Of a stretch of DNA of 64,000 bases, positions 4,859 through 52,098 are shown piece after piece; position 1 is the stretch's first letter, and every line of letters starts with the position of its first letter. The notes under the pieces were generated by a model, which worked only from the letters and a program-made list of their open reading frames with translations, made no database searches and was not told where the DNA came from. The DNA is taken from positions 886 through 64,885 of the forward strand of contig CAMQVI010000004.1 of NCBI GenBank assembly GCA_947038195.1, read 5' to 3'. The position numbers and the translations under genes were made by a program. The DNA is from an uncultured Brevinema sp. (lineage in GTDB: Bacteria > Spirochaetota > Brevinematia > Brevinematales > Brevinemataceae).

Positions 4859-5027
4859 TAATGGTTAATGATATTAATTATATATTATTTATTATAGATG
4901 AGATTTCTTTTTTTTTCAAGCCTTAATCCAAATATATTGTCTTTTATCTTTATTAAGTTTCAAAAAGAAATGACGATAAAAAGATAAGCCTATTTTTTAA
5001 AATAGTATGCCAGGAGCCAGTGAAATA

Positions 5028-5477
5028 ATGAAATTAAAAGTCCTCTTACCTTTTTTGTATCTTACGATTGCTTTCTTTGTAGCTTTTTTTATTTTTGGGA
5101 AACCAGGAATCTTATACAATATCTATCGCTCTAAAGAAGAAGTAAGATTGCTAGATACTGTTTGGAAATCTTATATTGAAATAGAAGAAATGACGAGAGA
5201 ATACTATAGATTGGTAGAAATGAAAACTCCAAATCAGGCTTTTTTAATTGAGCAAGGGCGAAAACTACAAGATGTTTTAGTATTTAAAATAGACGAAGAA
5301 AGAAAGGAAATCTATCCCCAAGATTTATTAATAGAACAAGAAAAAAAGCTCTTTTTCAGCATAGGTTTTATTGCTATAATAGTATTGTTATCAGGATATA
5401 TTGGCCTTTTTCTCATAACATATATTGCTAAAAAGAAAACACAAGCTCGCCAAGAGAATGAGGGATTTATAGAATGA
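5028..5477 (+). CDS. Small membrane protein (N- and C-terminal TM, central coiled-coil-like region), function unknown
   Basis: The track ORF starts at 5007. AGGAG at 5012..5016 favours the ATG at 5028 (MKLKVLLPFLYL...). 4-nt overlap with the next gene. Confidence 0.55.
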   Translation: MKLKVLLPFLYLTIAFFVAFFIFGKPGILYNIYRSKEEVRLLDTVWKSYIEIEEMTREYYRLVEMKTPNQAFLIEQGRKLQDVLVFKIDEERKEIYPQDLLIEQEKKLFFSIGFIAIIVLLSGYIGLFLITYIAKKKTQARQENEGFIE

Positions 5478-6502
5478 TTATATATAAATTATTTCGCTAT
5501 ATTATATTTTTATTATTATTAGGTACAACGGCTATGTATTTAATGAGACATACAGTAGAAATACCTTCTTTTTTGGGAAACTATTTTAGCATCTTAGATA
5601 AAGCACACCTTAGTATAAGAAAGAGCATGCTAGGCAATAGTGAAGAAATGCTCGCTCAAGATCTGCAAAAAGAAGGAGACAATCTAGTTTTATCATATCA
5701 GGAGTTGAGTGAAGATTTTTTTAATGACATTGGTTTAGAAACGGCTCTGTTTGCTGCCTTAGGGAGAAATTTTACAGATCTTCATTACATGATAGAAGCA
5801 TATTTAACGCATTATCCCGAATTTAAAGATGTCACTGTCTATGAAAACGACAACTTGATTTATAAGTACAACAGCTCAAAACGTCCTTCAGATTTTGCCT
5901 TGCGTTACAATAAAAATGTTTATGGAGAAAATTTAGTTTTAGAGATTGAGTATGATGCTACTATTTTACAAGATAGTGTTAATAAATTCACTCAAGCAAT
6001 TATAATAAAAAATCAAAACACTTTCTATTATAATCGTAAGGACAAATCAATAACCATACCTTTTCTCAATATGATAGAAGGGTATTATAATCCTATTGAT
6101 CCTGCTTCAAAATTACCCAATGGTAAAATGTTATACTCCTACAAACTAAACGATGAGTTTAGATTTCCCCTCACCCTTTTTATCGTTTCTGAAAATAAGA
6201 CGCAAGGGGTGGACTGGATCAATATGTTATGGGCTTTGATTTTTCCTGCTATATGGCTCGCTTTATTTTTTATGGACAGATTTTTATCCCATTTTATTTA
6301 CCAAAAAACTCAGATGCGTAAACAACATCAAGCGATGAGCCAAATGGCAAATTTCAAGGATGATAATCACGAAAAAGAAGATTCTTTAGCATGGCTAGAT
6401 AGATTTATTAAAATAGAAGAATTAACAGATAAAGAAATAGCTCATCAAGAGCAAGTAAATGAATTAATAAAAAAAAATAACAGAGGTTCTGAAGATCAAT
6501 GA
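5474..6502 (+). CDS. Membrane protein with extracytoplasmic domain between two TM segments, function unknown
   Basis: 342-aa ORF, start and stop both overlap neighbours by 4 nt. N-terminal TM plus TM at INMLWALIFPAIWLALFF. Confidence 0.55.
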   Translation: MIIYKLFRYIIFLLLLGTTAMYLMRHTVEIPSFLGNYFSILDKAHLSIRKSMLGNSEEMLAQDLQKEGDNLVLSYQELSEDFFNDIGLETALFAALGRNFTDLHYMIEAYLTHYPEFKDVTVYENDNLIYKYNSSKRPSDFALRYNKNVYGENLVLEIEYDATILQDSVNKFTQAIIIKNQNTFYYNRKDKSITIPFLNMIEGYYNPIDPASKLPNGKMLYSYKLNDEFRFPLTLFIVSENKTQGVDWINMLWALIFPAIWLALFFMDRFLSHFIYQKTQMRKQHQAMSQMANFKDDNHEKEDSLAWLDRFIKIEELTDKEIAHQEQVNELIKKNNRGSEDQ

Positions 6503-7251
6503 AGAGAATAGGTATTCTTTTGATAACACTTTTTGCTGTAAATAATCTTAGTTTTGCTTATGTCGTATCTTGGCGTTATAAACACGAGTCGTCTTTATTT
6601 CTTACCGATGTTAGAGGCTTGATCGAATCTAATTATTCTATGATGCCTGACCCAGATACCACAACACATTACTTGCGTATAGAAGATGTTGTTGCCCCAG
6701 AGGGGAATGATTTCGAACAACTTTTTGTAGAATTTACCAAAATACGTTTTAGCTCTCATATAGTTGTGAAAATATACGATACCTTCACGGACGAACAACT
6801 GGCAGAAATTACTTTTTATGAAAAAGGTTTGAAATCTTTAGGGAAATACGGAGCTTTATCGGATAGAGTGTATCTTGTCGTAGAATTATATGGCAAAGAT
6901 GTAGAATTACGGTCTGTGGGTTTTAATATTAATAAAAGTATTATTCTTGAAGAAGAAGAATTTAGGATTAGTGATAGTAGAATTTATGCAAAAAAAGACA
7001 ATCTTCATATCAGCCTTTCTTTATCTGAGGAAGCAGAGGTTTCTCTTTATCTCTATACGGGTGAAGGGGGCTTAGAAGAGCGAATTCTTAGTAAGGAAGT
7101 TTTGGGGGTAGGGGACTATGAATTTCAGTGGGATCCTCTCGAATCAGATGATATCCCTACAGAAGGGTCTCCCTATTATGTATGGATAAGGGCAATAAAT
7201 TTACGTTCTTCCCCTGTAGAATATATTAGGGAATTTTACCTCATCCCTTAA
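6499..7251 (+). CDS. Secreted protein with C-terminal FlgD-Ig-like beta-sandwich region, function unknown
   Basis: Signal peptide MKRIGILLITLFAVNNLSFA. The C-terminal EVSLYLYTGEGG...GDYEFQWD...YYVWIRA resembles FlgD-Ig-like folds (weak). Confidence 0.5.
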   Translation: MKRIGILLITLFAVNNLSFAYVVSWRYKHESSLFLTDVRGLIESNYSMMPDPDTTTHYLRIEDVVAPEGNDFEQLFVEFTKIRFSSHIVVKIYDTFTDEQLAEITFYEKGLKSLGKYGALSDRVYLVVELYGKDVELRSVGFNINKSIILEEEEFRISDSRIYAKKDNLHISLSLSEEAEVSLYLYTGEGGLEERILSKEVLGVGDYEFQWDPLESDDIPTEGSPYYVWIRAINLRSSPVEYIREFYLIP

Positions 7252-7295: not shown

Positions 7296-8165
7296 ATGCA
7301 AGAATTAATCTTATTCTTAGAACGTTTATATTACGAAAAAAACTATTCTCCCCATACGATAAAAGCTTATAAAGAAGATATTAGTTTATTTCTCTTATTT
7401 TTAGATGAACAGAATCTTCGCTTCGAGGAAGTATCCCCTTATTTTGTAACGACATGGCTGGAACATTTGGAAAAATTCAATCTCTCCCCTAAAACTCTAT
7501 CAAGAAGATTGAGTTCTCTGAGGAGTTTTTTTAATTTTCTTTGTCTTAAAAAGATCCTTAACAAAAACCCATTTTTATTATTCACTTCTCCTAAAATGAG
7601 CAAAAAAATTCCTAGCACTTTAAGTGTTAAAGAAATTAATCATGTTTTTGATAGTATGCCCATAGATACTATTTTAGAAAGACGAAATAGACATATATTA
7701 ATGTTTTTATATATGACGGGGATCCGCTCTGAAGAATTGTGCAATCTTCAATGTGAGGGTGTTTTGTGGAGCCAAAATCTTTTAAGGGTTATGGGAAAGG
7801 GAAGTAAAGAACGATTGGTCCCTCTTATCCCCTTAGCTAAAGATATTTTAACTCAATGGCTTATAGATAGAAAAGAGTTGGATAAAAAAAATTCCAATGC
7901 ACTTTTTATATCCCAAAATGGAAATCCTCTCACAACTTCAATGATAAGAAAAATAGTAAGCTCTATTAAACCTCATATATCTAAAGGTTTTCACCCCCAC
8001 GCATTTCGTTATACTTTTGCCTCTCAACTTTTAGAGTCAGGAGCTAATCTTCGCCATATCCAAGAGTTATTAGGTCACGCTAATCTATCTGTAACACAGC
8101 GTTATACAAAACTTTCTATTAAAGATTTGAAAAACAAGTATCAGCAATTTCATCCCCACGCTTAA
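7296..8165 (+). CDS. xerD: Tyrosine site-specific recombinase, XerC/XerD type
   Basis: 289 aa. Catalytic box HPHAFRYTFASQLLESGANLRHIQELLGHANLSVTQRYT, plus an N-terminal SAM-like core-binding domain. Confidence 0.85.
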   Translation: MQELILFLERLYYEKNYSPHTIKAYKEDISLFLLFLDEQNLRFEEVSPYFVTTWLEHLEKFNLSPKTLSRRLSSLRSFFNFLCLKKILNKNPFLLFTSPKMSKKIPSTLSVKEINHVFDSMPIDTILERRNRHILMFLYMTGIRSEELCNLQCEGVLWSQNLLRVMGKGSKERLVPLIPLAKDILTQWLIDRKELDKKNSNALFISQNGNPLTTSMIRKIVSSIKPHISKGFHPHAFRYTFASQLLESGANLRHIQELLGHANLSVTQRYTKLSIKDLKNKYQQFHPHA

Positions 8166-14566: not shown

Positions 14567-16768
14567 TTAAAGCTTTTTATAAGATAATAGCACAGAATTC
14601 CCAATTACTGTTAAAGAACTGAAGCTCATAGCTACCTCTGCTACTATAGGGTGCAATAAGCCTGTAAAAGCTAGAGGAATAGCAATAACATTATAAAAGA
14701 AGGCCCAAAATAAATTTTCTTTGATTTTTTTGAAAGTAGCAGTGGCTAGCTTAAAACTGAGAACCAAAGAGGTAAGGGAACCTGTAACAAGAATTAAATC
14801 TCCTGCTTCTGCAGCTATATCAGTCCCTGTTCCCATTGCAATACCAACATCAGAAGCTTCCAAAGCGGCTGCATCGTTAATTCCATCACCTACAAAACAT
14901 ACTTTATAGCCTTGTTTTTGAAGAGATTGCACGGTGTCTAATTTTTGTTTAGGGGTACTTTCAGATACCACAGAGCTAATGTCGAGCTCTTTAGCTATGG
15001 TCATCGCTGCGTTTTTATGATCTCCCGTAATCATGATAATTCTTTTACCCATATCTTTTAAGAGTCTAACACTTTCTTTGGCTTCGGGATTTAATTTATC
15101 CGCAAAGCTAATAATAGCTTCACATGTTTTTTTGCTTTGGTCGGATAAACAGATTAAACTTTCCCCTAGGTTTTGGTGATGATCGATTTGGGTTTGGAGC
15201 TGAGGGGAAATAATGATATCTTGTTCTTGGGTAGCTTTAAGCGACCCTGCAAACCACTCTGTATCTTGGTGATGTCCAGAGATGCCTTGTCCAGGGGTAT
15301 TTATAGAATCGATAAAACTAATGGGGCTTATATTATTTTCTTTAGCGTAATTCATTACTGCTAAGGCAAGGGGGTGGGTAGATATAGTTTCTAAGCCTGC
15401 TAGAATTTCTATAATTTCTTTTGTACTAGCTCTTTCTGCTGTAATAGAAGTGAGTTTGGGCTTACCTATGGTGAGGGTTCCTGTCTTATCCATAGCAATA
15501 ATATCAATGTTAGTGAGATTTTGAACGGCAGCCCCCCTTCTGATGAGTATGCCTTTTTTAGCCCCTAGAGTAGAGCCATTGACTAAAGCCATGGGAGTAG
15601 CTAAGCCTAAGGCACAAGGACAAGCAATCACTAGGACGGCAATTCCAGAAGAAATAGCAGCAGCGATACGGGTACTTTCGAGACTCTCTAAACCGAAACG
15701 AGCTAAAATATGAGGGAAAAATTCAGGAAAAGCAAACCAAATAGAAAAACTTAAAAAAGAAAGAGTGAGAATAATAGGAACAAAAACGGTAGTAACTTTG
15801 TCCGCTAGAATTTGTATAGGGACTTTGGTTCCTTGTGCTTCTTGTACTAGTCTTATTGTTTGAGCTAATAAACTATTTTTAGACTCTTTTTCTACTTTTA
15901 CAGTGATGAAGCCATCTATATTAAGAGATGCCCCATAAACATAATCACCTTCTTGTTTTTCTATAGGAAGAGATTCGCCAGTGAGAAAACTCTCGTCGAC
16001 ACTAGTACGCCCAGAGACAATAACCCCGTCACTAGAGATTTTTTCTCCTGCTTTAATTTGTATTCGATCGCCTATTACTAAGCTAGCGATAGGCACGTCT
16101 TCTGTTTGTCCATTTTCTAATACTTTATGAGCTGTTTTATTTCCAAAATTAGCGAGAGCACTTACCACTCTAGAAGCAGACCCTCTTGCCATCGTTTCTA
16201 AGAATCGACCCGTGAGATTTACGGCAATAAGCATAGCCGCAGTCATAGAATAGTTAGGAATAGCAATGCCGAAGAAAGGGAGTAGAGAGCTTATCCATGC
16301 CGCCAATGCTCCTAAGGCTATTAAAACGTCCATTCCCATTGTACCACTCACTAAGGAGGCATAGGCACTTTTTAGAATAGGAAACCCAGGAATGAAAATA
16401 GTCAATCCTGCAACAATGAGCCCTAGAAAAGGGGGAACCCCCGATACAAACATAGGGATCACTAAAAGGAGGGAGAAAAACCAAGAAAGAATAACAGAAA
16501 GAAGGAGTGGTCTTAAAGAGGCACTCTTATAGCCCTCTTCTTCTTCTCCATCAGAACTAAGCCCAAAACCCATATTATGGGCGACTTGCATCATTTTTTG
16601 CTCATTAATGACATGAGAAAAATACTGTATATGTGCTGTCCCTGAAGCGAAATTTACAGTACAATTTTGTACTCCGTCAGTCATAGATAGTTTTTTTTCC
16701 AATCTACTAGAACAAGCAGTACAATGCATCCCTTCTACTTTGAAAATCTGAGATTTATATTCAGGCAT
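14567..16768 (-). CDS. copA: Copper-translocating P1B-type ATPase
   Basis: HMA domain GMHCTACSSRLE, CPC motif ACPCALGLATP, DKTGTLT, GDGINDAAAL. Confidence 0.92.
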   Translation of the reverse strand: MPEYKSQIFKVEGMHCTACSSRLEKKLSMTDGVQNCTVNFASGTAHIQYFSHVINEQKMMQVAHNMGFGLSSDGEEEEGYKSASLRPLLLSVILSWFFSLLLVIPMFVSGVPPFLGLIVAGLTIFIPGFPILKSAYASLVSGTMGMDVLIALGALAAWISSLLPFFGIAIPNYSMTAAMLIAVNLTGRFLETMARGSASRVVSALANFGNKTAHKVLENGQTEDVPIASLVIGDRIQIKAGEKISSDGVIVSGRTSVDESFLTGESLPIEKQEGDYVYGASLNIDGFITVKVEKESKNSLLAQTIRLVQEAQGTKVPIQILADKVTTVFVPIILTLSFLSFSIWFAFPEFFPHILARFGLESLESTRIAAAISSGIAVLVIACPCALGLATPMALVNGSTLGAKKGILIRRGAAVQNLTNIDIIAMDKTGTLTIGKPKLTSITAERASTKEIIEILAGLETISTHPLALAVMNYAKENNISPISFIDSINTPGQGISGHHQDTEWFAGSLKATQEQDIIISPQLQTQIDHHQNLGESLICLSDQSKKTCEAIISFADKLNPEAKESVRLLKDMGKRIIMITGDHKNAAMTIAKELDISSVVSESTPKQKLDTVQSLQKQGYKVCFVGDGINDAAALEASDVGIAMGTGTDIAAEAGDLILVTGSLTSLVLSFKLATATFKKIKENLFWAFFYNVIAIPLAFTGLLHPIVAEVAMSFSSLTVIGNSVLLSYKKL

Positions 16769-45508: not shown

Positions 45509-46339
45509 TTAAATTTCTAAGTAATCTGGTCTATCTTCTCTAAACCAATTATGATCTACAGGACCTACACCACTCCCCAAACTACTAATAATTGTAGATT
45601 CTAAGGCTTTAGTGATAAATTTTTTGGCTCTTCTGACGCTTGTCTCTAAGGAACGTCCTTGAGCCAATGAGGCTACAATAGCAGCAGATAGAGTGCATCC
45701 TGTCCCATGGGTGTGAGGGGTATTTACTCTAGGAGTGGCAAGAAAAATCATTTCTTTCCCTTGTTCCACAAAAATATCAGTAGAATCCTCTGTGCTATAA
45801 TGTCCCCCCTTAATAATCGCAGATTTGATTCCCATGTCTAAAATACGCTTTGCAATTTCGATTTGGGGTAGGGTGGTTTTAGCGGGGTCTTCTCCTATAA
45901 TAACCATAGCTTCAGGAAGGTTAGGGGTAATAATAGTAGCTAAAGGTATGAGCCTTTTAATCGTGGCTTGAATGGCAGAAGGACTGAGCATAGGGTGATT
46001 GTTTTTGAGCATCATAACAGGGTCGAGAACGATAGGGATATCTTGAGCATGTTCTTCTAGGTAATCTGCTACCATGTGGATCACGTCTTCTTCTATAAGG
46101 ATTCCTATTTTAATAGCTTTGGGGCGTAAATCTTCAAAAATCACGTCTATTTGATGTTTAATGGTGGGGGTATCTATCATAAGACGTTTTTGCACGCCCA
46201 GAGTGTTTTGAACAGCAACAAGAGTAAGAGCAGTCATACCATAGCACCCAAAAGCACTAAAAGTTTTTATATCGGCTAACATACCAGCAGCACCAGAATT
46301 ATCTAATCCTGCAATAGTTAAAATAGGGTATTGGAGCAT
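45509..46339 (-). CDS. ThiD/PdxK-family kinase (hydroxymethylpyrimidine/phosphomethylpyrimidine or pyridoxal kinase), paralogue A
   Basis: 276 aa. ILTIAGLDNSGAAG, KIG(I)L, VLDPVM, GTGCTLSAAI. Confidence 0.85.
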   Translation of the reverse strand: MLQYPILTIAGLDNSGAAGMLADIKTFSAFGCYGMTALTLVAVQNTLGVQKRLMIDTPTIKHQIDVIFEDLRPKAIKIGILIEEDVIHMVADYLEEHAQDIPIVLDPVMMLKNNHPMLSPSAIQATIKRLIPLATIITPNLPEAMVIIGEDPAKTTLPQIEIAKRILDMGIKSAIIKGGHYSTEDSTDIFVEQGKEMIFLATPRVNTPHTHGTGCTLSAAIVASLAQGRSLETSVRRAKKFITKALESTIISSLGSGVGPVDHNWFREDRPDYLEI

Positions 46340-46379
46340 AATTTTTTATCCTTAATATTTATATTATTATAGATTAAAT

Positions 46380-47210
46380 TTATATAGTTAAAAAACGGGG
46401 TTTTTCTTCTCTAAACCAATTATGATCTACAGGACCTACTCCAGCCCCTAGGCTTTGTTTTTTGGTAGATGCTAGGGCGTGAGTGAGGAAGTTTTTAGCG
46501 ATTTTTACACTTTCCTCTACACTATACCCTCGAGCCAGAGCAGCAGCCGTTGCAGCAGATAGAGTGCAGCCTGTTCCATGGGTGTGAGGGGTATCAATTC
46601 TTGGCGTACGGAGATAAACCATAGCCTTGCCTTGTTCTATAAAAATATCTGTAGAATCTTTGGTATCGTAGTGCCCTCCCTTAATAATAGCAGCCTTTAC
46701 GCCTATATCAAGGAATCTTTGAGCAATTTCTTCTTGGCTTAGGATGACTTTGGTGGGGTCTTCTCCTATAATAATCATCGCTTCAGGAATGTTGGGTGTA
46801 ATAATAGTCGCTAAAGGAACTAATCTCTCAACGAGAGCTTTGGTAGCGGTGGGAGAAAGTAAAGAGATATTACCTTTGCACATCATTACAGGATCGAGGA
46901 CTATAGGAATATCTTGAGCATTTTTTTCTAAATAGTCGGCTACCATAAGAATAATTTCTTCATTAAGGAGCATTCCTATTTTGACAGCTTTGGGACGCAT
47001 ATCTTCAAAAATTGTTTCTATTTGTCCTTTTATAATAGGAAGATCAATAACAAAACGATCCTTTACTCCTAAAGAGTTTTGTACAGCGACAAGGGTAATA
47101 GCACTCATACCATAACAGCCAAAGGCACTAAAAGTTTTAGTGTCTGCTAGCAAGCCAGCTCCACCAGAATTATCTAAACCAGCAATAGTGAGAATAGGAT
47201 ATTGAATCAA
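46380..47210 (-). CDS. ThiD/PdxK-family kinase, paralogue B
   Basis: The track start at 47225 is a TTG inside a GGAGG RBS. A TTG at 47210 gives MIQYPILTIAG..., collinear with paralogue A (MLQYPILTIAG). Confidence 0.85.
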   Translation of the reverse strand: MIQYPILTIAGLDNSGGAGLLADTKTFSAFGCYGMSAITLVAVQNSLGVKDRFVIDLPIIKGQIETIFEDMRPKAVKIGMLLNEEIILMVADYLEKNAQDIPIVLDPVMMCKGNISLLSPTATKALVERLVPLATIITPNIPEAMIIIGEDPTKVILSQEEIAQRFLDIGVKAAIIKGGHYDTKDSTDIFIEQGKAMVYLRTPRIDTPHTHGTGCTLSAATAAALARGYSVEESVKIAKNFLTHALASTKKQSLGAGVGPVDHNWFREEKPRFLTI

Positions 47211-47280
47211 TGTAGTTTCCTCCAAAATGTTTCTATATTATACTATAATTATTATATAAATAAAAGAAAAATTACCATTT

Positions 47281-47327
47281 AAAAAACACTAGGGGCTACC
47301 TTTCTTTAAGATTGGCAGCCCCTAGTG
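47281..47327 (-). terminator. Intrinsic terminator closing the riboswitch-controlled operon
   Basis: The minus strand reads cactaggggctgcc-N13-ggtagcccctagtg followed by tttttt. Confidence 0.75.
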
Positions 47328-47349
47328 TAGGGTATATGTGGTTTTTTTA

Positions 47350-48879
47350 TTATCTTACATTTATCTCTGTAACGAGATTATTAACTATTTTCAGTTTATA
47401 AGTCGTTCCCTTATAGGAATATTTTAAATCAGAGTGGTTTGGCGACGTGTAGGAGATGTCTGTATCAATCCACACACTCTTAGGAGAGGAATTGATATCA
47501 AAAGTCACTTCAACGTAGCGTTTCTCTATTACGGCGGTCGCTTTTAGTTTACTTGGGTCAAGGGATTTCTCTTCATCTACACTTGAAGGTGGTCGTCCAG
47601 GTATAAAACTGATCCTAGTATACAAGTACTTAATCCGTCTCCCAGAATCATCAGAATTGTTAAACATCCCATAGTGTAATTTCCCACTTACAATAGGAGG
47701 TAGAACAATAGGAGGAGGAGGAGGTGTGTTCACATCAATTTTAACATATACAATTTTATTATTGGCTATGGTAATACTATGTTTCCACTCTTTATCCCCC
47801 ACAGCTACAGTATATGTAATAATACTATCCCCTGTATACTTTTGGGCACTGTCTATATATAAGTCACGAGTGTAGTTAAAAGTAATTTTTGTTATAGTAC
47901 CCGTTGCTGTCCCAACTACTCTCATGTCTTTTCCTGATAAGGCAGTTTCTGCTGCTCCAGTTTTTAAGTAGCGAGCGTCTATGTCATCATTATCAAACAT
48001 AGCCACTGTTAGAGGTCTAGGAGCTGGTGGGGCAATATTTTTTCGCTCTCTTTCAGCAATAGCCACGACTTCATGATTTTTTATGCTTAGGATATAGGAA
48101 TAACGGGTATTTGCTACGGTGATACTATAAGAAATAGTCCCATCTTTTTTGTTATAAGGCGTATTAGAATCAAAATAAATAATGGGCAACTTACCTCCAA
48201 GGATACGAGTTTGTCGGAAAGAATCATAACCAGGAACGGGATTAACTGCCTGCACTTTGAAGTCTTTTTGTGACCCACCATCATAGCTATATGATATAGT
48301 CATTCCTTCGAACATAGCTTCATCAAGGAAAGGAGGAATAGGCAGCTCAGCTCCTTCAGGGACAGCTATGGGGATTAGGTCTGAAGTATCCACAGATTTT
48401 CCGTCCCAATTGGCGATATTAGCGAAACCTCTAGCATTTCTCGTACGATAGATAATATCATTAGATATACGCACCACATACAGAGCGCCGTATAGTTTGG
48501 GGCTGGCTGATGAAGGCATATACATAATAGCTGTTTTTTCATCTACAAAATGAGCAGGGAATGTACTTAATTTAGAGACAGGGATATGAAGGACATAGTG
48601 CTTATCAGGATCCACATCATCCATATAATCCCATAAATCTCCATCTTTAAACCAAAAGTGCATATTTAGAGAGCCACCACCCCAGATATTAGCTCTCCCG
48701 TGCCATTTGTTATCTTCATGGATATCTTTTATTAATTCTGCCCAAGATGTGGCGTATATTGCTTGAACTGCAGGACTTATATCTACAGATTCAGAAAGAG
48801 TAGGGGGCTCAGGTATCAAGCTACATGATATAGCTGAAACACTTAGGAATAATCCTAAAACTAAATTTTTAATATTCAT
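47350..48879 (-). CDS. Lipoprotein, unknown family: N-terminal domain shared with the 185-aa neighbour plus three repeated C-terminal modules
   Basis: Lipobox SAISC. Pro-rich linkers APPAPRP and TPPPPPIVLPPIV. Repeated module endings YSYILSIKNHEVV / WKHSITIANNKIV / YKLKIVNNLVT. Confidence 0.75.
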   Translation of the reverse strand: MNIKNLVLGLFLSVSAISCSLIPEPPTLSESVDISPAVQAIYATSWAELIKDIHEDNKWHGRANIWGGGSLNMHFWFKDGDLWDYMDDVDPDKHYVLHIPVSKLSTFPAHFVDEKTAIMYMPSSASPKLYGALYVVRISNDIIYRTRNARGFANIANWDGKSVDTSDLIPIAVPEGAELPIPPFLDEAMFEGMTISYSYDGGSQKDFKVQAVNPVPGYDSFRQTRILGGKLPIIYFDSNTPYNKKDGTISYSITVANTRYSYILSIKNHEVVAIAERERKNIAPPAPRPLTVAMFDNDDIDARYLKTGAAETALSGKDMRVVGTATGTITKITFNYTRDLYIDSAQKYTGDSIITYTVAVGDKEWKHSITIANNKIVYVKIDVNTPPPPPIVLPPIVSGKLHYGMFNNSDDSGRRIKYLYTRISFIPGRPPSSVDEEKSLDPSKLKATAVIEKRYVEVTFDINSSPKSVWIDTDISYTSPNHSDLKYSYKGTTYKLKIVNNLVTEINVR

Positions 48880-48911
48880 TTTATTTTTTTCTCCGTACTA
48901 ATACTTATTTT

Positions 48912-49469
48912 TTAGGGCGTGTCTGCTAACAATTCCCATTTGTCGTCTGCTATGCTAGGGAAAGTCTTTTTATCCCAATTTTTTAGAGCTCCCAATCCTA
49001 TTTTAGGATTACTGCCTCTATAGATGGTATTATTAGAAACTCTTATTATGTGAAGGGCGCCTTCTCCTAAATCAGAATTTCCATAAATAGGGTATACCAT
49101 AAGGGCTGTTTTCCCGTCTATAAAGGAATAGGGGTATAGCGATTTATTCTCATTGTATAGTAATTTATAAAAAAGATGTGCGTCAGATCCGAAATCTGGG
49201 GTACTATTCCATAAATCGCCTGCATCTTTAAACAATAACTCTATATTTAATGCCCCAACTCCAAAAAGCTTACTATTACCTGTATAGCGATTTATATCTG
49301 TTATATCTTTAGTATTTTCTAACCACTCTCTATGATACTTAGCCTGTATGGCTGGGTCTGTATCTAAATTTTTGTCAAAAGCCTTGTTCTCTGGAATTAA
49401 ACTACAAGATACCATAAAAGTAATTAGTAGTAATCCAAAATTAATTTTATTAATTCTTTTAATATTCAT
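48912..49469 (-). CDS. Lipoprotein, unknown family (single-domain paralogue of the 509-aa protein N-terminus)
   Basis: Lipobox FMVSC. CSLIPE...DPAIQAKY..W......D......G.....G.GALN....FKDAGDLW aligns with the 509-aa protein. Confidence 0.75.
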   Translation of the reverse strand: MNIKRINKINFGLLLITFMVSCSLIPENKAFDKNLDTDPAIQAKYHREWLENTKDITDINRYTGNSKLFGVGALNIELLFKDAGDLWNSTPDFGSDAHLFYKLLYNENKSLYPYSFIDGKTALMVYPIYGNSDLGEGALHIIRVSNNTIYRGSNPKIGLGALKNWDKKTFPSIADDKWELLADTP

Positions 49470-49520
49470 TTTATATTTTTCTCCCCAGTAAAAACTAGGC
49501 TATGTTATTTTGAAAGGGGG

Positions 49521-51335
49521 CTAAAATTTATATTCTATTCCTAATTCTGCTCTAATCCCCGCATTATAAGGAGAATAGAGATTTTCTGGTATGGGTCTAT
49601 AAGATTGATTGGCAAGATTGAGAACATTAAAAATAAAAATCTTATAACGGAAATTCAAATCAAGATAATGGCGTGGTACCTCATCTACAATATATCCTTG
49701 ATTGGGCACCATAGCATGGAGACGGTAGCTCAAGCTGGCTAGCCATATATCGTCCATACTTCTAGCTGATAATTTGGCTGTCCATTTCCACATAGGTATA
49801 GTAGATGAAGAAAAACCGTCTTTATCTATACCCCAATGCCATGCTAAGGCTGTGTGAGCTGTTAATATCGTAGTATTTATGAGGTGCTTATATTCTCCTC
49901 CAATTTCGGCAGAGACATCGGTAACGGATTCGGAGTTCACAAGAACGTTGTCATCAGTAAGGCGAAAACTTCTTTTAAGCCACGAGTAAGAGAAGCTAGT
50001 ATAAAAGCGTCCTTTAGCTTGATTGACCCCTATTTCTAATCCTGTACGTAGTCCATCTTTAGGGAGTACTTGAGAATTAGGAAGAGGTGCAGTAGTGCCA
50101 AAGCCATAAGCTGTTGTAATATCTGGAACAATGTAAACACGGCTTATATGAGCAGAGCTATAAAAACCATTTTTATGCCTCAATCCCAAAGTAAAACTAG
50201 GGACTGGAGTATATAAACCCGTTTGGGCGAGTATCTGATTTAAGGAAAAATTAAAATCAAGGTTTATAGGGCGATTTTCTTCTTCTTTATAAATAGAAAC
50301 CCCAAATTCTGTTACAAGGCTAACAAAATGTTCTCCATTAACAGGCACCCCCAAGTAGTTATCTTTAGAAGCTCTAGACCCATCCTCTACGTTGTTATAC
50401 TCGTAACCAAAGGCAACATTATAATAAAAACGATCTATTTTATCTTTCGCCCCTAAGCTAACATTAAATTGATGATTGAGATAATCATTAGTAGTAGAGT
50501 CGCTTTGTACAAGGTGGTTATAGAGCGTGTAGTTAGCACTAAAGGTCATGATTTTATAATTATACCGTAGACCCATAATAAAATTATTTCTAGTCAATTC
50601 ATCTAAAGGAATTACACCTGTTCCTGTTTCTGAATAAGAATCAGTAAAGGTATTAGCGATAATAAATTCTAAATTTTTCCATACGGTTTTAGAAAGAAAA
50701 GAAAAACGTTCAAAACTAGAATTAGGATAAACTTCAAAATCATTACCATTATCAATAGCATAGTAATAATCAATAAATCCTATATCTCCTAAAATTCCGA
50801 AGAAAGTAGAACCATCTTTAAATGTTTTTTCGCCTTGAATTTTAGTGTATAAACTACCCGTAGTAGATCCTGTAGCTAAAATAGAAATAGAGTCTTCGTA
50901 ATTTATAGGAATACGAAAATCAATAAGACTTCCAGCATTCACCCCAAAAGGCACGAGATTTTGTTTGTAAATATCCACTCTTGTAGCAAAATCATAAGGT
51001 AAGAGATCTAATAAAATTTGCCCTTGACTAATAGAAGGGTCTTTAATGATAAAACCATCCAGACCTAAAATAGGAGGAGTGCTAGCTCCATCTACTCTTA
51101 AAGCTCCTATACGTCCTACTTCTGTAAATTCAGAAGTAACGGCGGCAGAATCAATAAGGTTGGCGGATGAGCCTTGAGTATTAAGGTCTGTACTTTGAAA
51201 ATTAAGTCCTGGTCTGTAATTTTGGGCGATATTTCTTTCTGTAGAAAGCCCAGATTCAAAATCACTATCTTGATCAGTTTCTTGTGTCCATAAAGTGTTG
51301 GTGAAGAATAATAAAAAAAGAATAATATAAGGCAT
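49521..51335 (-). CDS. Outer-membrane beta-barrel, TonB-dependent-receptor-like (BtuB-sized)
   Basis: RBS AAAGGA precedes the ATG at 51335 (track TTG start at 51356). Signal peptide, plug-like LRVDGAS...LGLDGFIIKD...RVDIYKQ...FGVNAGSLIDF, alternating beta-strand pattern, C-terminal ...LGIEYKF. Confidence 0.7.
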   Translation of the reverse strand: MPYIILFLLFFTNTLWTQETDQDSDFESGLSTERNIAQNYRPGLNFQSTDLNTQGSSANLIDSAAVTSEFTEVGRIGALRVDGASTPPILGLDGFIIKDPSISQGQILLDLLPYDFATRVDIYKQNLVPFGVNAGSLIDFRIPINYEDSISILATGSTTGSLYTKIQGEKTFKDGSTFFGILGDIGFIDYYYAIDNGNDFEVYPNSSFERFSFLSKTVWKNLEFIIANTFTDSYSETGTGVIPLDELTRNNFIMGLRYNYKIMTFSANYTLYNHLVQSDSTTNDYLNHQFNVSLGAKDKIDRFYYNVAFGYEYNNVEDGSRASKDNYLGVPVNGEHFVSLVTEFGVSIYKEEENRPINLDFNFSLNQILAQTGLYTPVPSFTLGLRHKNGFYSSAHISRVYIVPDITTAYGFGTTAPLPNSQVLPKDGLRTGLEIGVNQAKGRFYTSFSYSWLKRSFRLTDDNVLVNSESVTDVSAEIGGEYKHLINTTILTAHTALAWHWGIDKDGFSSSTIPMWKWTAKLSARSMDDIWLASLSYRLHAMVPNQGYIVDEVPRHYLDLNFRYKIFIFNVLNLANQSYRPIPENLYSPYNAGIRAELGIEYKF

Positions 51336-51370
51336 GATGGTCCTTTTATACTCCAAAGGGATAAGAAATC

Positions 51371-51648
51371 AAAAAACCGAAAAGATTAATACTTTTCGGG
51401 GATTTTAATAGAAAGGGATTATTACTAGATACACTAGTAGTGTAATACCAATCTTCCTTATTCCCGAGGAAGAAAATATTTTTCTAAAAACAAAAGCAGG
51501 TGTCCTGGCTCTCAGCTTACAAATACGCCTTCTCCATAAAATGAATGGCTTGTTGTATTTGCTACTACTGACTACAGTGTCGGGTAACGCATCGGAATTT
51601 AACCGATTTCCCTCTTAATTTTCTTATAACAGAAAAACTTTTATTTTT
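51371..51648 (-). promoter_or_regulatory. Cobalamin (B12) riboswitch with terminator-type expression platform
   Basis: The minus strand reads AGAGGGAAAUCGGUUAAAUUCCGAUGCGUUACCCGACACUGUAGUCAG ... GCCAUUCAUUUUAUGGAGAAGGCG ... GAGAGCCAGGACACCUGC (B12 box). Candidate P1 is AAAAAUAAAAG/CUUUUGUUUUU (51638..51648 with 51486..51496). Terminator CCGAAAAG-N7-CUUUUCGG plus U6 at 51371..51399. Confidence 0.85.
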
Positions 51649-51658
51649 AAGATATCCT

Positions 51659-51687
51659 ATTGTACTATGAAAGTGAATTCCTGTCAA
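51659..51687 (-). promoter_or_regulatory. Promoter TTGACA-17-TACAAT driving the riboswitch leader
   Basis: The minus strand reads ttgaca ggaattcactttcatag tacaat, ending about 10 nt before the riboswitch P1. Confidence 0.6.
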
Positions 51688-51732: not shown

Positions 51733-52098
51733 CTATATAATAGATGAAAATTTATGATATTCTCTAATGTCTAAACGAGTTTTTGCAAAAAACAAATCTC
51801 GCTGATGGTAGGGATTATAATCCCATTCTATATGAAAAGGAGACAAGGTGACATTTTGGATTAATCCAAAATACGCTGCATAACGAAAAACTTCTTTAAT
51901 AATTTTTTCATAATCAGCACCTTGGTAGATCCCAAGTAAATTTTTAATTTCATAGTAGGATAAAGACAAAGTTTTAATAGGTGCATTTTCATAGCCACTA
52001 GGATGTTCTTCGAAAGCGAGCTGTTCTAATTTGTGTAAAGATAAAGAAATGTTTAGGTTTGCATAAATACCGTAGTAATTAAGACATGTGTCTAACAT
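51733..52098 (-). CDS. Hypothetical soluble protein, 121 aa
   Basis: ORF with a plausible RBS (AGGGG 6 nt upstream). No motif that I recognise. Confidence 0.4.
   Translation of the reverse strand: MLDTCLNYYGIYANLNISLSLHKLEQLAFEEHPSGYENAPIKTLSLSYYEIKNLLGIYQGADYEKIIKEVFRYAAYFGLIQNVTLSPFHIEWDYNPYHQRDLFFAKTRLDIREYHKFSSII

Follow-up and report, generated by a model that had tools for sequence, protein, structure and literature searches.

A three-gene operon on the minus strand of a 64,000-nucleotide (nt) stretch of DNA from an uncultured Brevinema sp. (contig CAMQVI010000004.1; hereafter the window, G+C ~35%) probably encodes a B12-repressed system for corrinoid uptake across the outer membrane, in which a TonB-energised barrel would work together with surface lipoproteins that capture the corrinoid and hand it off. 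The operon begins with a cobalamin riboswitch and continues with three open reading frames (ORFs) of 604, 185 and 509 amino acids (aa), the first coding for the barrel and the other two for lipoproteins. Direct support comes from the riboswitch and its promoter, from two intrinsic terminators, from a transporter-like fold in the 604-aa protein, from the restricted lipoprotein family and from the linkage of this family to riboswitch-controlled barrels. The arrangement had been pointed out in an original prediction made from the DNA letters, whose observation we confirm and whose interpretation, a candidate surface corrinoid-capture system, we find supported. That prediction had also named in-silico findings that would speak against it, and none of them emerged: the cmsearch score was not low, the lipoproteins did not fall into a known unrelated family, and the riboswitch linkage was not missing elsewhere.

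The aptamer (51478..51657 (-)) matched the Rfam covariance model RF00174 over its full length (model positions 1-189) with 107.5 bits, far over the gathering score of 31.5 (E 6e-26), and GAGCCAGGACACCUGC aligned to the B12 box of the model. It was the sole riboswitch found when the whole window was scanned with Rfam. A sigma-70-type promoter, TTGACA-17-TACAAT (51659..51687 (-)), ends 2 nt before the aptamer; it agrees with the consensus at 11/12 positions and is the top-scoring site of its region, promoter-like sites overall being not above chance (30 found vs 28.7 expected). The exact same motif also lies right next to the aptamer in three further lineages (L004, L005 and L007 of the homologous loci that we number L001 to L017).

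To the leader RNA we brought an alignment of eight leaders from distinct Brevinema lineages, across which the aptamer core is near-invariant. Directly after the aptamer, the hairpin scan and the alignment point to a hairpin, UCUUCCU-CGGGAAU-AAGGAAGA (51452..51473 (-)), whose TTCCTCGGG..TAAGG is invariant in 8/8 leaders (UUCCU-CGGG..U-AAGGAA) and whose loop CGGG is complementary to CCCG of the aptamer loop L5. A kissing loop between L5 and L13 is established cobalamin-riboswitch architecture, and by analogy this hairpin is a candidate P13/L13 element that would pair with L5. Further downstream comes an intrinsic terminator whose hairpin, CCGAAAAG-loop-CUUUUCGG, runs into U6 (51371..51399 (-); hairpin proper at 51399..51377, then T6), 35 nt before the ATG at 51335; its stem and U-tract are kept in 7/8 aligned leaders and its loops vary. 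The leader thus has the parts of an expression platform, a conserved CGGG hairpin and then a conserved hairpin with U6, and most likely acts as a transcriptional OFF switch. The riboswitch upstream of the barrel, the promoter just ahead of it and the terminator before ATG 51335, all three claimed in the original prediction, are therefore borne out.

Downstream of this leader, the barrel ORF occupies 49521..51335 (-) (604 aa from ATG 51335, with an alternative reading of 611 aa from an upstream TTG), and is followed on the same strand by the 185-aa lipoprotein (48912..49469 (-)) and the 509-aa lipoprotein (47350..48879 (-)), at the lengths first given for them. The strong terminator proposed to close the unit after three genes was also recovered (47281..47328 (-)), as a perfect 15-base-pair stem (47328..47286) with a U-tract running to 47281; it has a z of -5.2, and 0/200 shuffled sequences fold as well. 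A simple scan misses it because of its long loop. Among the checked window ORFs of at least 150 aa, eight of which have no Pfam match, we found no Btu or cobalamin-biosynthesis gene.

The same arrangement recurs in other Brevinema DNA. The named homologues belong to metagenome-assembled genomes (MAGs) labelled "Brevinema sp." and "Brevinemataceae bacterium", and two metagenome contigs (L001 and L003) carry an identical barrel protein in the same gene order as the window. RF00174 precedes every barrel homologue for which upstream DNA is available (L001, L002, L004-L009, L011, L012 and L017; 81-108 bits). In the window, L002, L004-L007, L010-L012 and L017, the barrel gene is immediately followed by one or more members of the lipoprotein family. 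In every locus with readable context, the lipoproteins follow a riboswitch-controlled barrel, and the expectation that this family would co-occur with B12 riboswitches in other genomes was thus upheld in every other locus examined. In L017, from a divergent Brevinema sp., a frameshift or a stop has apparently broken one lipoprotein paralogue into fragments of 45 aa and 140 aa (7387..7956), beside an intact paralogue of 192 aa.

The 604-aa protein itself escapes sequence-based annotation. Neither Pfam nor NCBIfam recognised it at E <= 1, no PDB sequence matched it or its family profile, and when compared with the receptor models PF00593, TIGR01779 and NF007926 it gave no match at E <= 1-10, which places it outside these sequence models. 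Its relatives are few: 11 among 5.8 billion proteins, at 48-61% identity, and one more, 40% identical, in L017. The protein has a signal peptide, a plug-like N-terminal segment of ~120 aa and a C-terminus (...EYKF) whose last residue is aromatic, the usual case for outer-membrane barrels. An AlphaFold2 model computed from the 11-sequence alignment (mean predicted local distance difference test score (pLDDT) 54, with barrel blocks at 55-84) leaves residues 1-144 unfolded and forms a barrel of ~22 strands from residues 149-603, the strand number of a BtuB-type receptor. A Foldseek search of this model against the PDB gave 188 matches at E <= 0.001, and the best 50 of these 188, with E down to 8e-14, were all TonB-dependent transporters, including FrpB, Bacteroides BtuB3 and BtuB2, E. 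coli BtuB, OprC and ZnuD; the query-normalised template-modelling score (TM-score) with E. coli BtuB (2gsk) was 0.56. The BtuB-like fold suspected from the size of the protein is thus backed by the modelled strands and by the listed structural matches. On this model, we describe the protein as apparently a very divergent one of the TonB-dependent-transporter type, because the barrel is found, the plug and the TonB box are undecided (see below) and the sequence models fail to take it in.

The signal peptides of both window lipoproteins end in a lipobox Cys, and the two proteins are paralogous over an N-terminal domain, as had been noticed (39% identity over 169 aa, E 2e-34). The 185-aa protein is a single copy of this Brevinema-specific domain by ORF list, paralogue alignment and domain profile; in the 509-aa protein it spans residues ~20-180 (48340..48822 (-)), and the remainder with the stop codon (47350..48339 (-)) consists of about three beta-rich repeats joined by Pro-rich linkers. 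The shared domain comprises ~150 aa with the consensus ..DP.IQA.YK..W...TK.I.....Y.G.ADIWGGG.L...F.F...G.LW......H.L......SF.D..TAIM.MP.SASPKL.G.LYVVRISN.TIYRTK...GF..I..WDGK.V. and is well conserved among family members, with several invariant positions. In the AlphaFold2 model of the 509-aa protein, residues 30-180 reach a pLDDT of 82-95 and form one helix (36-50) and then about nine strands, and the C-terminal repeats stay below 50. Neither protein gave a Pfam or NCBIfam match at E <= 1 or a relevant PDB sequence match. With the whole 509-aa model, the lowest E that Foldseek gave for any PDB structure was 0.05, above the limit of 0.001, and the 50 matches listed included no BtuG, BtuH, BtuJ, BtuK, BtuF or TbpB-type structure; matches to a lipocalin (4inn, E ~1) and to an MCC BT-domain were too weak to be evidence and were discarded. 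Membership of the class III periplasmic binding proteins (BtuF, PF01497) found no backing in sequence or fold. The lipoproteins therefore do lie outside known families, as first thought.

The lipoprotein family is sharply bounded. The domain profile, run with HMMER exhaustively against 1.84 billion cluster representatives, retrieved 23 proteins, of which 22 had E <= 1e-10, and the hits did not trail off into distant relatives; all named members are from Brevinema or Brevinemataceae. When we looked more widely for loci with such lipoproteins, a scan of genomes yielded one and two scans of metagenomes yielded none. A lipobox is present in all full-length members examined. The domain occurs singly (172-209 aa), as a tandem pair (328-368 aa) or in triplicate (P0021, 523 aa), and in some members it is fused to beta-rich C-terminal repeat modules. 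Within the C-terminal ~330 residues of the 509-aa protein, stretches 54-196 and 157-329 both match a stand-alone lipoprotein of 247 aa in L006, and the region is also related to the C-termini of P0025-27. The large lipoprotein measures 509 or 516 aa depending on the strain, vs 386 aa in the closely related L002 strain (L002 7764..8924), whose allele has one C-terminal repeat fewer; such strain-level variation in length is what would be expected of a surface-exposed protein.

A second type of locus (L013-L016) places the domain beside a different receptor. Here, tandem-domain lipoproteins (P0013, P0014 and P0038) directly follow a canonical receptor of 673-693 aa with the Pfam domains Plug and TonB_dep_Rec_b-barrel; the receptor is preceded by RF00174 (49-50 bits), and a TonB_C protein is encoded after the lipoproteins. 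In L016 (7587..12932), these are a receptor of 673 aa, lipoproteins of 348 and 365 aa and a TonB_C protein of 197 aa, and a split B12-dependent MetH (856 + 271 aa, with B12-binding and Met_synt_B12 domains) is encoded ~3 kilobases (kb) downstream on the opposite strand, indicating a demand for B12. The canonical receptor shows no similarity to the window barrel that hhalign could detect. The L016 locus and the window-identical L001 come from the same sample (ERZ4740281) and, because sample accessions of this series appear to be per-MAG, probably from one organism. Since the lipoprotein domain tracks two sequence-dissimilar classes of riboswitch-controlled barrel, its role would relate to the ligand or the process of uptake and not to one barrel.

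From these elements, we infer the following scheme. Transcription would start from the TTGACA/TACAAT promoter; once the aptamer had bound cobalamin, the kissing loop would dock the P13 hairpin on L5, and in this docked state the CCGAAAAG/CUUUUCGG-U6 terminator would form and halt transcription ahead of the genes. When B12 is scarce, read-through would allow the three proteins to be made. The very divergent, TonB-energised and plugged 22-strand barrel would then carry the corrinoid into the periplasm, and the two lipoproteins, placed with the barrel at the cell surface, would capture corrinoids and pass them on, much as BtuG does for BtuB in Bacteroides. The switching mechanism, the TonB dependence, the surface location and the binding of corrinoids by the lipoproteins are the parts of this scheme that we infer.

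A number of points count against this reading. The confidence of the barrel model is low (see the mean pLDDT given above), and it leaves the N-terminal 144 residues unmodelled. The N-terminal ~120 residues are the most conserved part of the barrel family, and by eye they resemble a plug (..LR.DG...ILG.DGF....DLLPYDFA.RVDIYKQNLVPFG.NAGS.IDFRIP vs IRG...LVLVNG... of the canonical receptor); Pfam Plug (PF07715) gave in-register, sub-threshold matches in 2/7 homologues (16.9 and 13.9 bits vs a cut-off of 23.9). When the barrel family was aligned to the canonical Brevinema-type receptor, hhalign returned a probability of 0.4, BLASTP of the two plug regions gave no match, and the N-terminal profile ranked 108 and 510 of 1925 against real plugs, within the shuffled range; as all three comparisons are non-significant, homology to the plug is statistically unsupported. 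Of the barrel with a plug-like segment first described, the barrel fold hence stands, and the conserved N-terminal segment is a putative plug. A TonB-box-like motif (I-P-I-x-S) is present in most barrel homologues and not in the window protein, so that a TonB box does not appear clearly conserved in the family, and no ExbB or ExbD gene was present in the DNA that was fetched. The barrel stands without an adjoining lipoprotein gene in two loci only (L008 and L009), from which it follows that the lipoprotein is not obligatory in cis. The lipoprotein domain bears no resemblance to known B12 binders, and its orientation, towards the surface or the periplasm, is not predictable for spirochetes. The assignment of L001 and L016 to the same genome rests on their shared sample accession and not on a closed genome. 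Taken alone, direct binding of corrinoids by the lipoproteins has in our view somewhat less than an even chance.

Of the alternatives, the one that fares best takes the lipoproteins for accessory or structural partners (for instance a lid, stabiliser or assembly factor, or a variable shield that protects from phage, bacteriocins or host immunity) with no high-affinity corrinoid site, B12 being bound by the barrel alone. It would fit the L008 and L009 barrels with no lipoprotein neighbour, the frameshifted paralogue of L017 and the great variation of the family in copy number, fusions and repeat number, which extends to strains (509/516 vs 386 aa), and in Bacteroides the operon lipoproteins BtuK2 and BtuL indeed do not bind cobamides (PMC13616437). 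We nevertheless regard it as unlikely: conservation of the domain is high, some positions being invariant, and its retention beside two sequence-dissimilar barrel types fits a ligand-directed role better than a structural contact specific to one barrel.

More doubtful still is a periplasmic placement, in which the lipoproteins would form a corrinoid shuttle that replaces BtuF and passes B12 to an inner-membrane importer encoded elsewhere. Tandem and triple copies, long repeats with Pro-rich linkers and length polymorphism between strains are typical of exposed surface proteins, and no similarity to the folds of periplasmic binding proteins was detected, although neither the operon nor the checked window ORFs include a BtuF or BtuCD gene, the proteins are lipid-anchored, and lipoprotein sorting in spirochetes is unreadable from sequence. 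Finally, it is very improbable that the operon is B12-regulated and imports something else (cobalt, a precursor or a nutrient needed according to B12 status). Control of a TonB-dependent-type barrel by RF00174 is the classic layout for BtuB, a B12-dependent MetH lies beside the second locus, and none of the fetched loci showed a gene for cobalamin biosynthesis. In favour of this alternative, FrpB, OprC and ZnuD match the barrel no worse than BtuB does, the canonical receptor of L013/L016 falls below the BtuB equivalog cut-offs, and cobalt transporters and B12-independent isozymes are likewise regulated by cobalamin riboswitches.

The surroundings of the operon and of its relatives hold further genes. 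Two tandem paralogous genes for hydroxymethylpyrimidine/hydroxymethylpyrimidine phosphate (HMP/HMP-P) kinases of the ThiD type (45509..47225 (-)) come directly after the operon terminator. We considered them as part of the operon and rejected this, because the strong terminator and an AT-rich gap lie between and because they are absent from this place in most loci; L011 likewise has a ThiD gene after its lipoproteins, and the window contains no thiamine pyrophosphate (TPP) riboswitch at Rfam gathering thresholds. On the other side, between uvrC and the riboswitch promoter, an ORF of 121 aa with no family match lies on the operon strand (51733..52098 (-)). It has a counterpart of 107-136 aa at the same place in every window-type locus for which upstream DNA was retrieved, and its C-terminal half is 48% identical in L017, the most divergent locus. 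Elsewhere in the window (5007..7251 (+)), three consecutive ORFs of 156, 342 and 250 aa have no Pfam match and adjoin a gene for a XerC/D-type tyrosine recombinase (7296..8165). A correspondence of the 342-aa and 250-aa ORFs with two ORFs beside the L007 operon was dropped: the lengths are similar, and the 342-aa/343-aa pair shows no similarity.

In L007 (5071..8942), a JGI Brevinema-like contig, a DUF454 gene and two exporter-type ATP-binding cassette (ABC) proteins (ABC_membrane + ABC_tran) are encoded ~2 kb downstream of the operon. B12 importers of the Rv1819c/BacA type share the ABC exporter fold, which makes these proteins speculative candidates for the inner-membrane step. A convergent gene for a PEGA-domain protein directly follows the barrel in L008 (8771..8825) and L009 (2531..2585), which represent one lineage, and L005 has a purine riboswitch (RF00167, 66 bits; 14825..14922 (-)) ahead of a gene for a xanthine/uracil permease.

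Should the corrinoid-capture reading be true, it would reveal a second, convergent instance of the BtuB-BtuG principle outside the Bacteroidota and make this a general strategy, here in a host-associated spirochete lineage; to our knowledge, lipoprotein-assisted capture of B12 has so far been worked out only in the Bacteroidota. It would also provide a new corrinoid-binding fold, usable as a B12 probe or sequestrant. Going further, and tentatively, the Brevinemataceae may have independently evolved a corrinoid-capture machine, a possibility that we would not call probable: a lipid-anchored surface B12 binder of ~150 aa and of new fold, duplicated, triplicated or fused to repeat stalks, would serve two sequence-dissimilar barrels, one of them beyond all sequence models. 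The barrel also exposes a blind spot of annotation, since a 22-strand, transporter-like barrel was missed by Pfam, NCBIfam and PDB sequence searches and came into view only through the riboswitch and a structure model; riboswitch-guided discovery thereby gives a likely role to three otherwise hypothetical genes. In kind, the system would be a familiar one, in which a riboswitch governs a barrel and a lipoprotein that serve B12 uptake, made here of parts that are restricted to the lineage and orphans by sequence; the function of the lipoproteins is suggested by their conserved context. As the lipoprotein domains are small and soluble, the hypothesis is directly testable.

Our literature search found no paper linking Brevinema with TonB; its co-mentions of Brevinema and cobalamin were gut-microbiome studies and reviews, and Leptospira was the subject of all spirochete papers that it returned on cobalamin riboswitches and on TonB-dependent receptors. 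By their logic, the closest known systems are the BtuB-BtuG cobamide uptake loci of Bacteroides thetaiotaomicron (with BtuH/J/K/L), in which cognate surface lipoproteins capture B12 for the barrel (PMC10404256, PMC6143338, PMC13616437). As in those loci, a cobalamin riboswitch is followed by a TonB-dependent-type barrel and then directly by one or more lipoprotein genes, the lipoproteins are paralogues, and more than one such locus would be present per organism; a lipoprotein gene next to a riboswitch-controlled B12 barrel, a feature of the B12-binding lipoproteins of Bacteroidota, is thus found here too. The differences are equally clear. The Brevinema operon belongs to the phylum Spirochaetota (Brevinemataceae) and not to the Bacteroidota, and its barrel escapes every sequence model. 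Its lipoprotein domain, predicted to be one helix with about nine strands, has no significant PDB match, in contrast to the 7-bladed propellers of BtuG and BtuK, and no sequence match to DUF4465, in contrast to BtuJ, so that neither sequence nor fold assigns it to BtuG, BtuH, BtuJ or BtuK (beta-propeller, DUF4465 jellyroll or BtuH B12-binding domain). Whereas cognate surface lipoproteins of Bacteroides are known to capture B12, binding of corrinoids by those of Brevinema is suggested by conserved context.

With E. coli BtuB (TIGR01779/NF007926; PDB 1nqe and 2gsk), the barrel shares a length of ~600 aa, a modelled 22-strand fold (query-normalised TM-score 0.54-0.56) and the control by a cobalamin riboswitch; it differs from it in having no detectable sequence similarity and no demonstrable plug or TonB box, and E. 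coli BtuB has no lipoprotein partner. TbpA/TbpB and HpuA/HpuB of Neisseria and SusC/SusD differ from the Brevinema operon in ligand and in regulation, and show no sequence match and no fold match among the PDB matches listed. What they would share with it is a general logic, that of a barrel served by a lipid-anchored partner that captures the ligand, and the tandem-duplicated domain of the Brevinema lipoproteins recalls the two-lobed TbpB.

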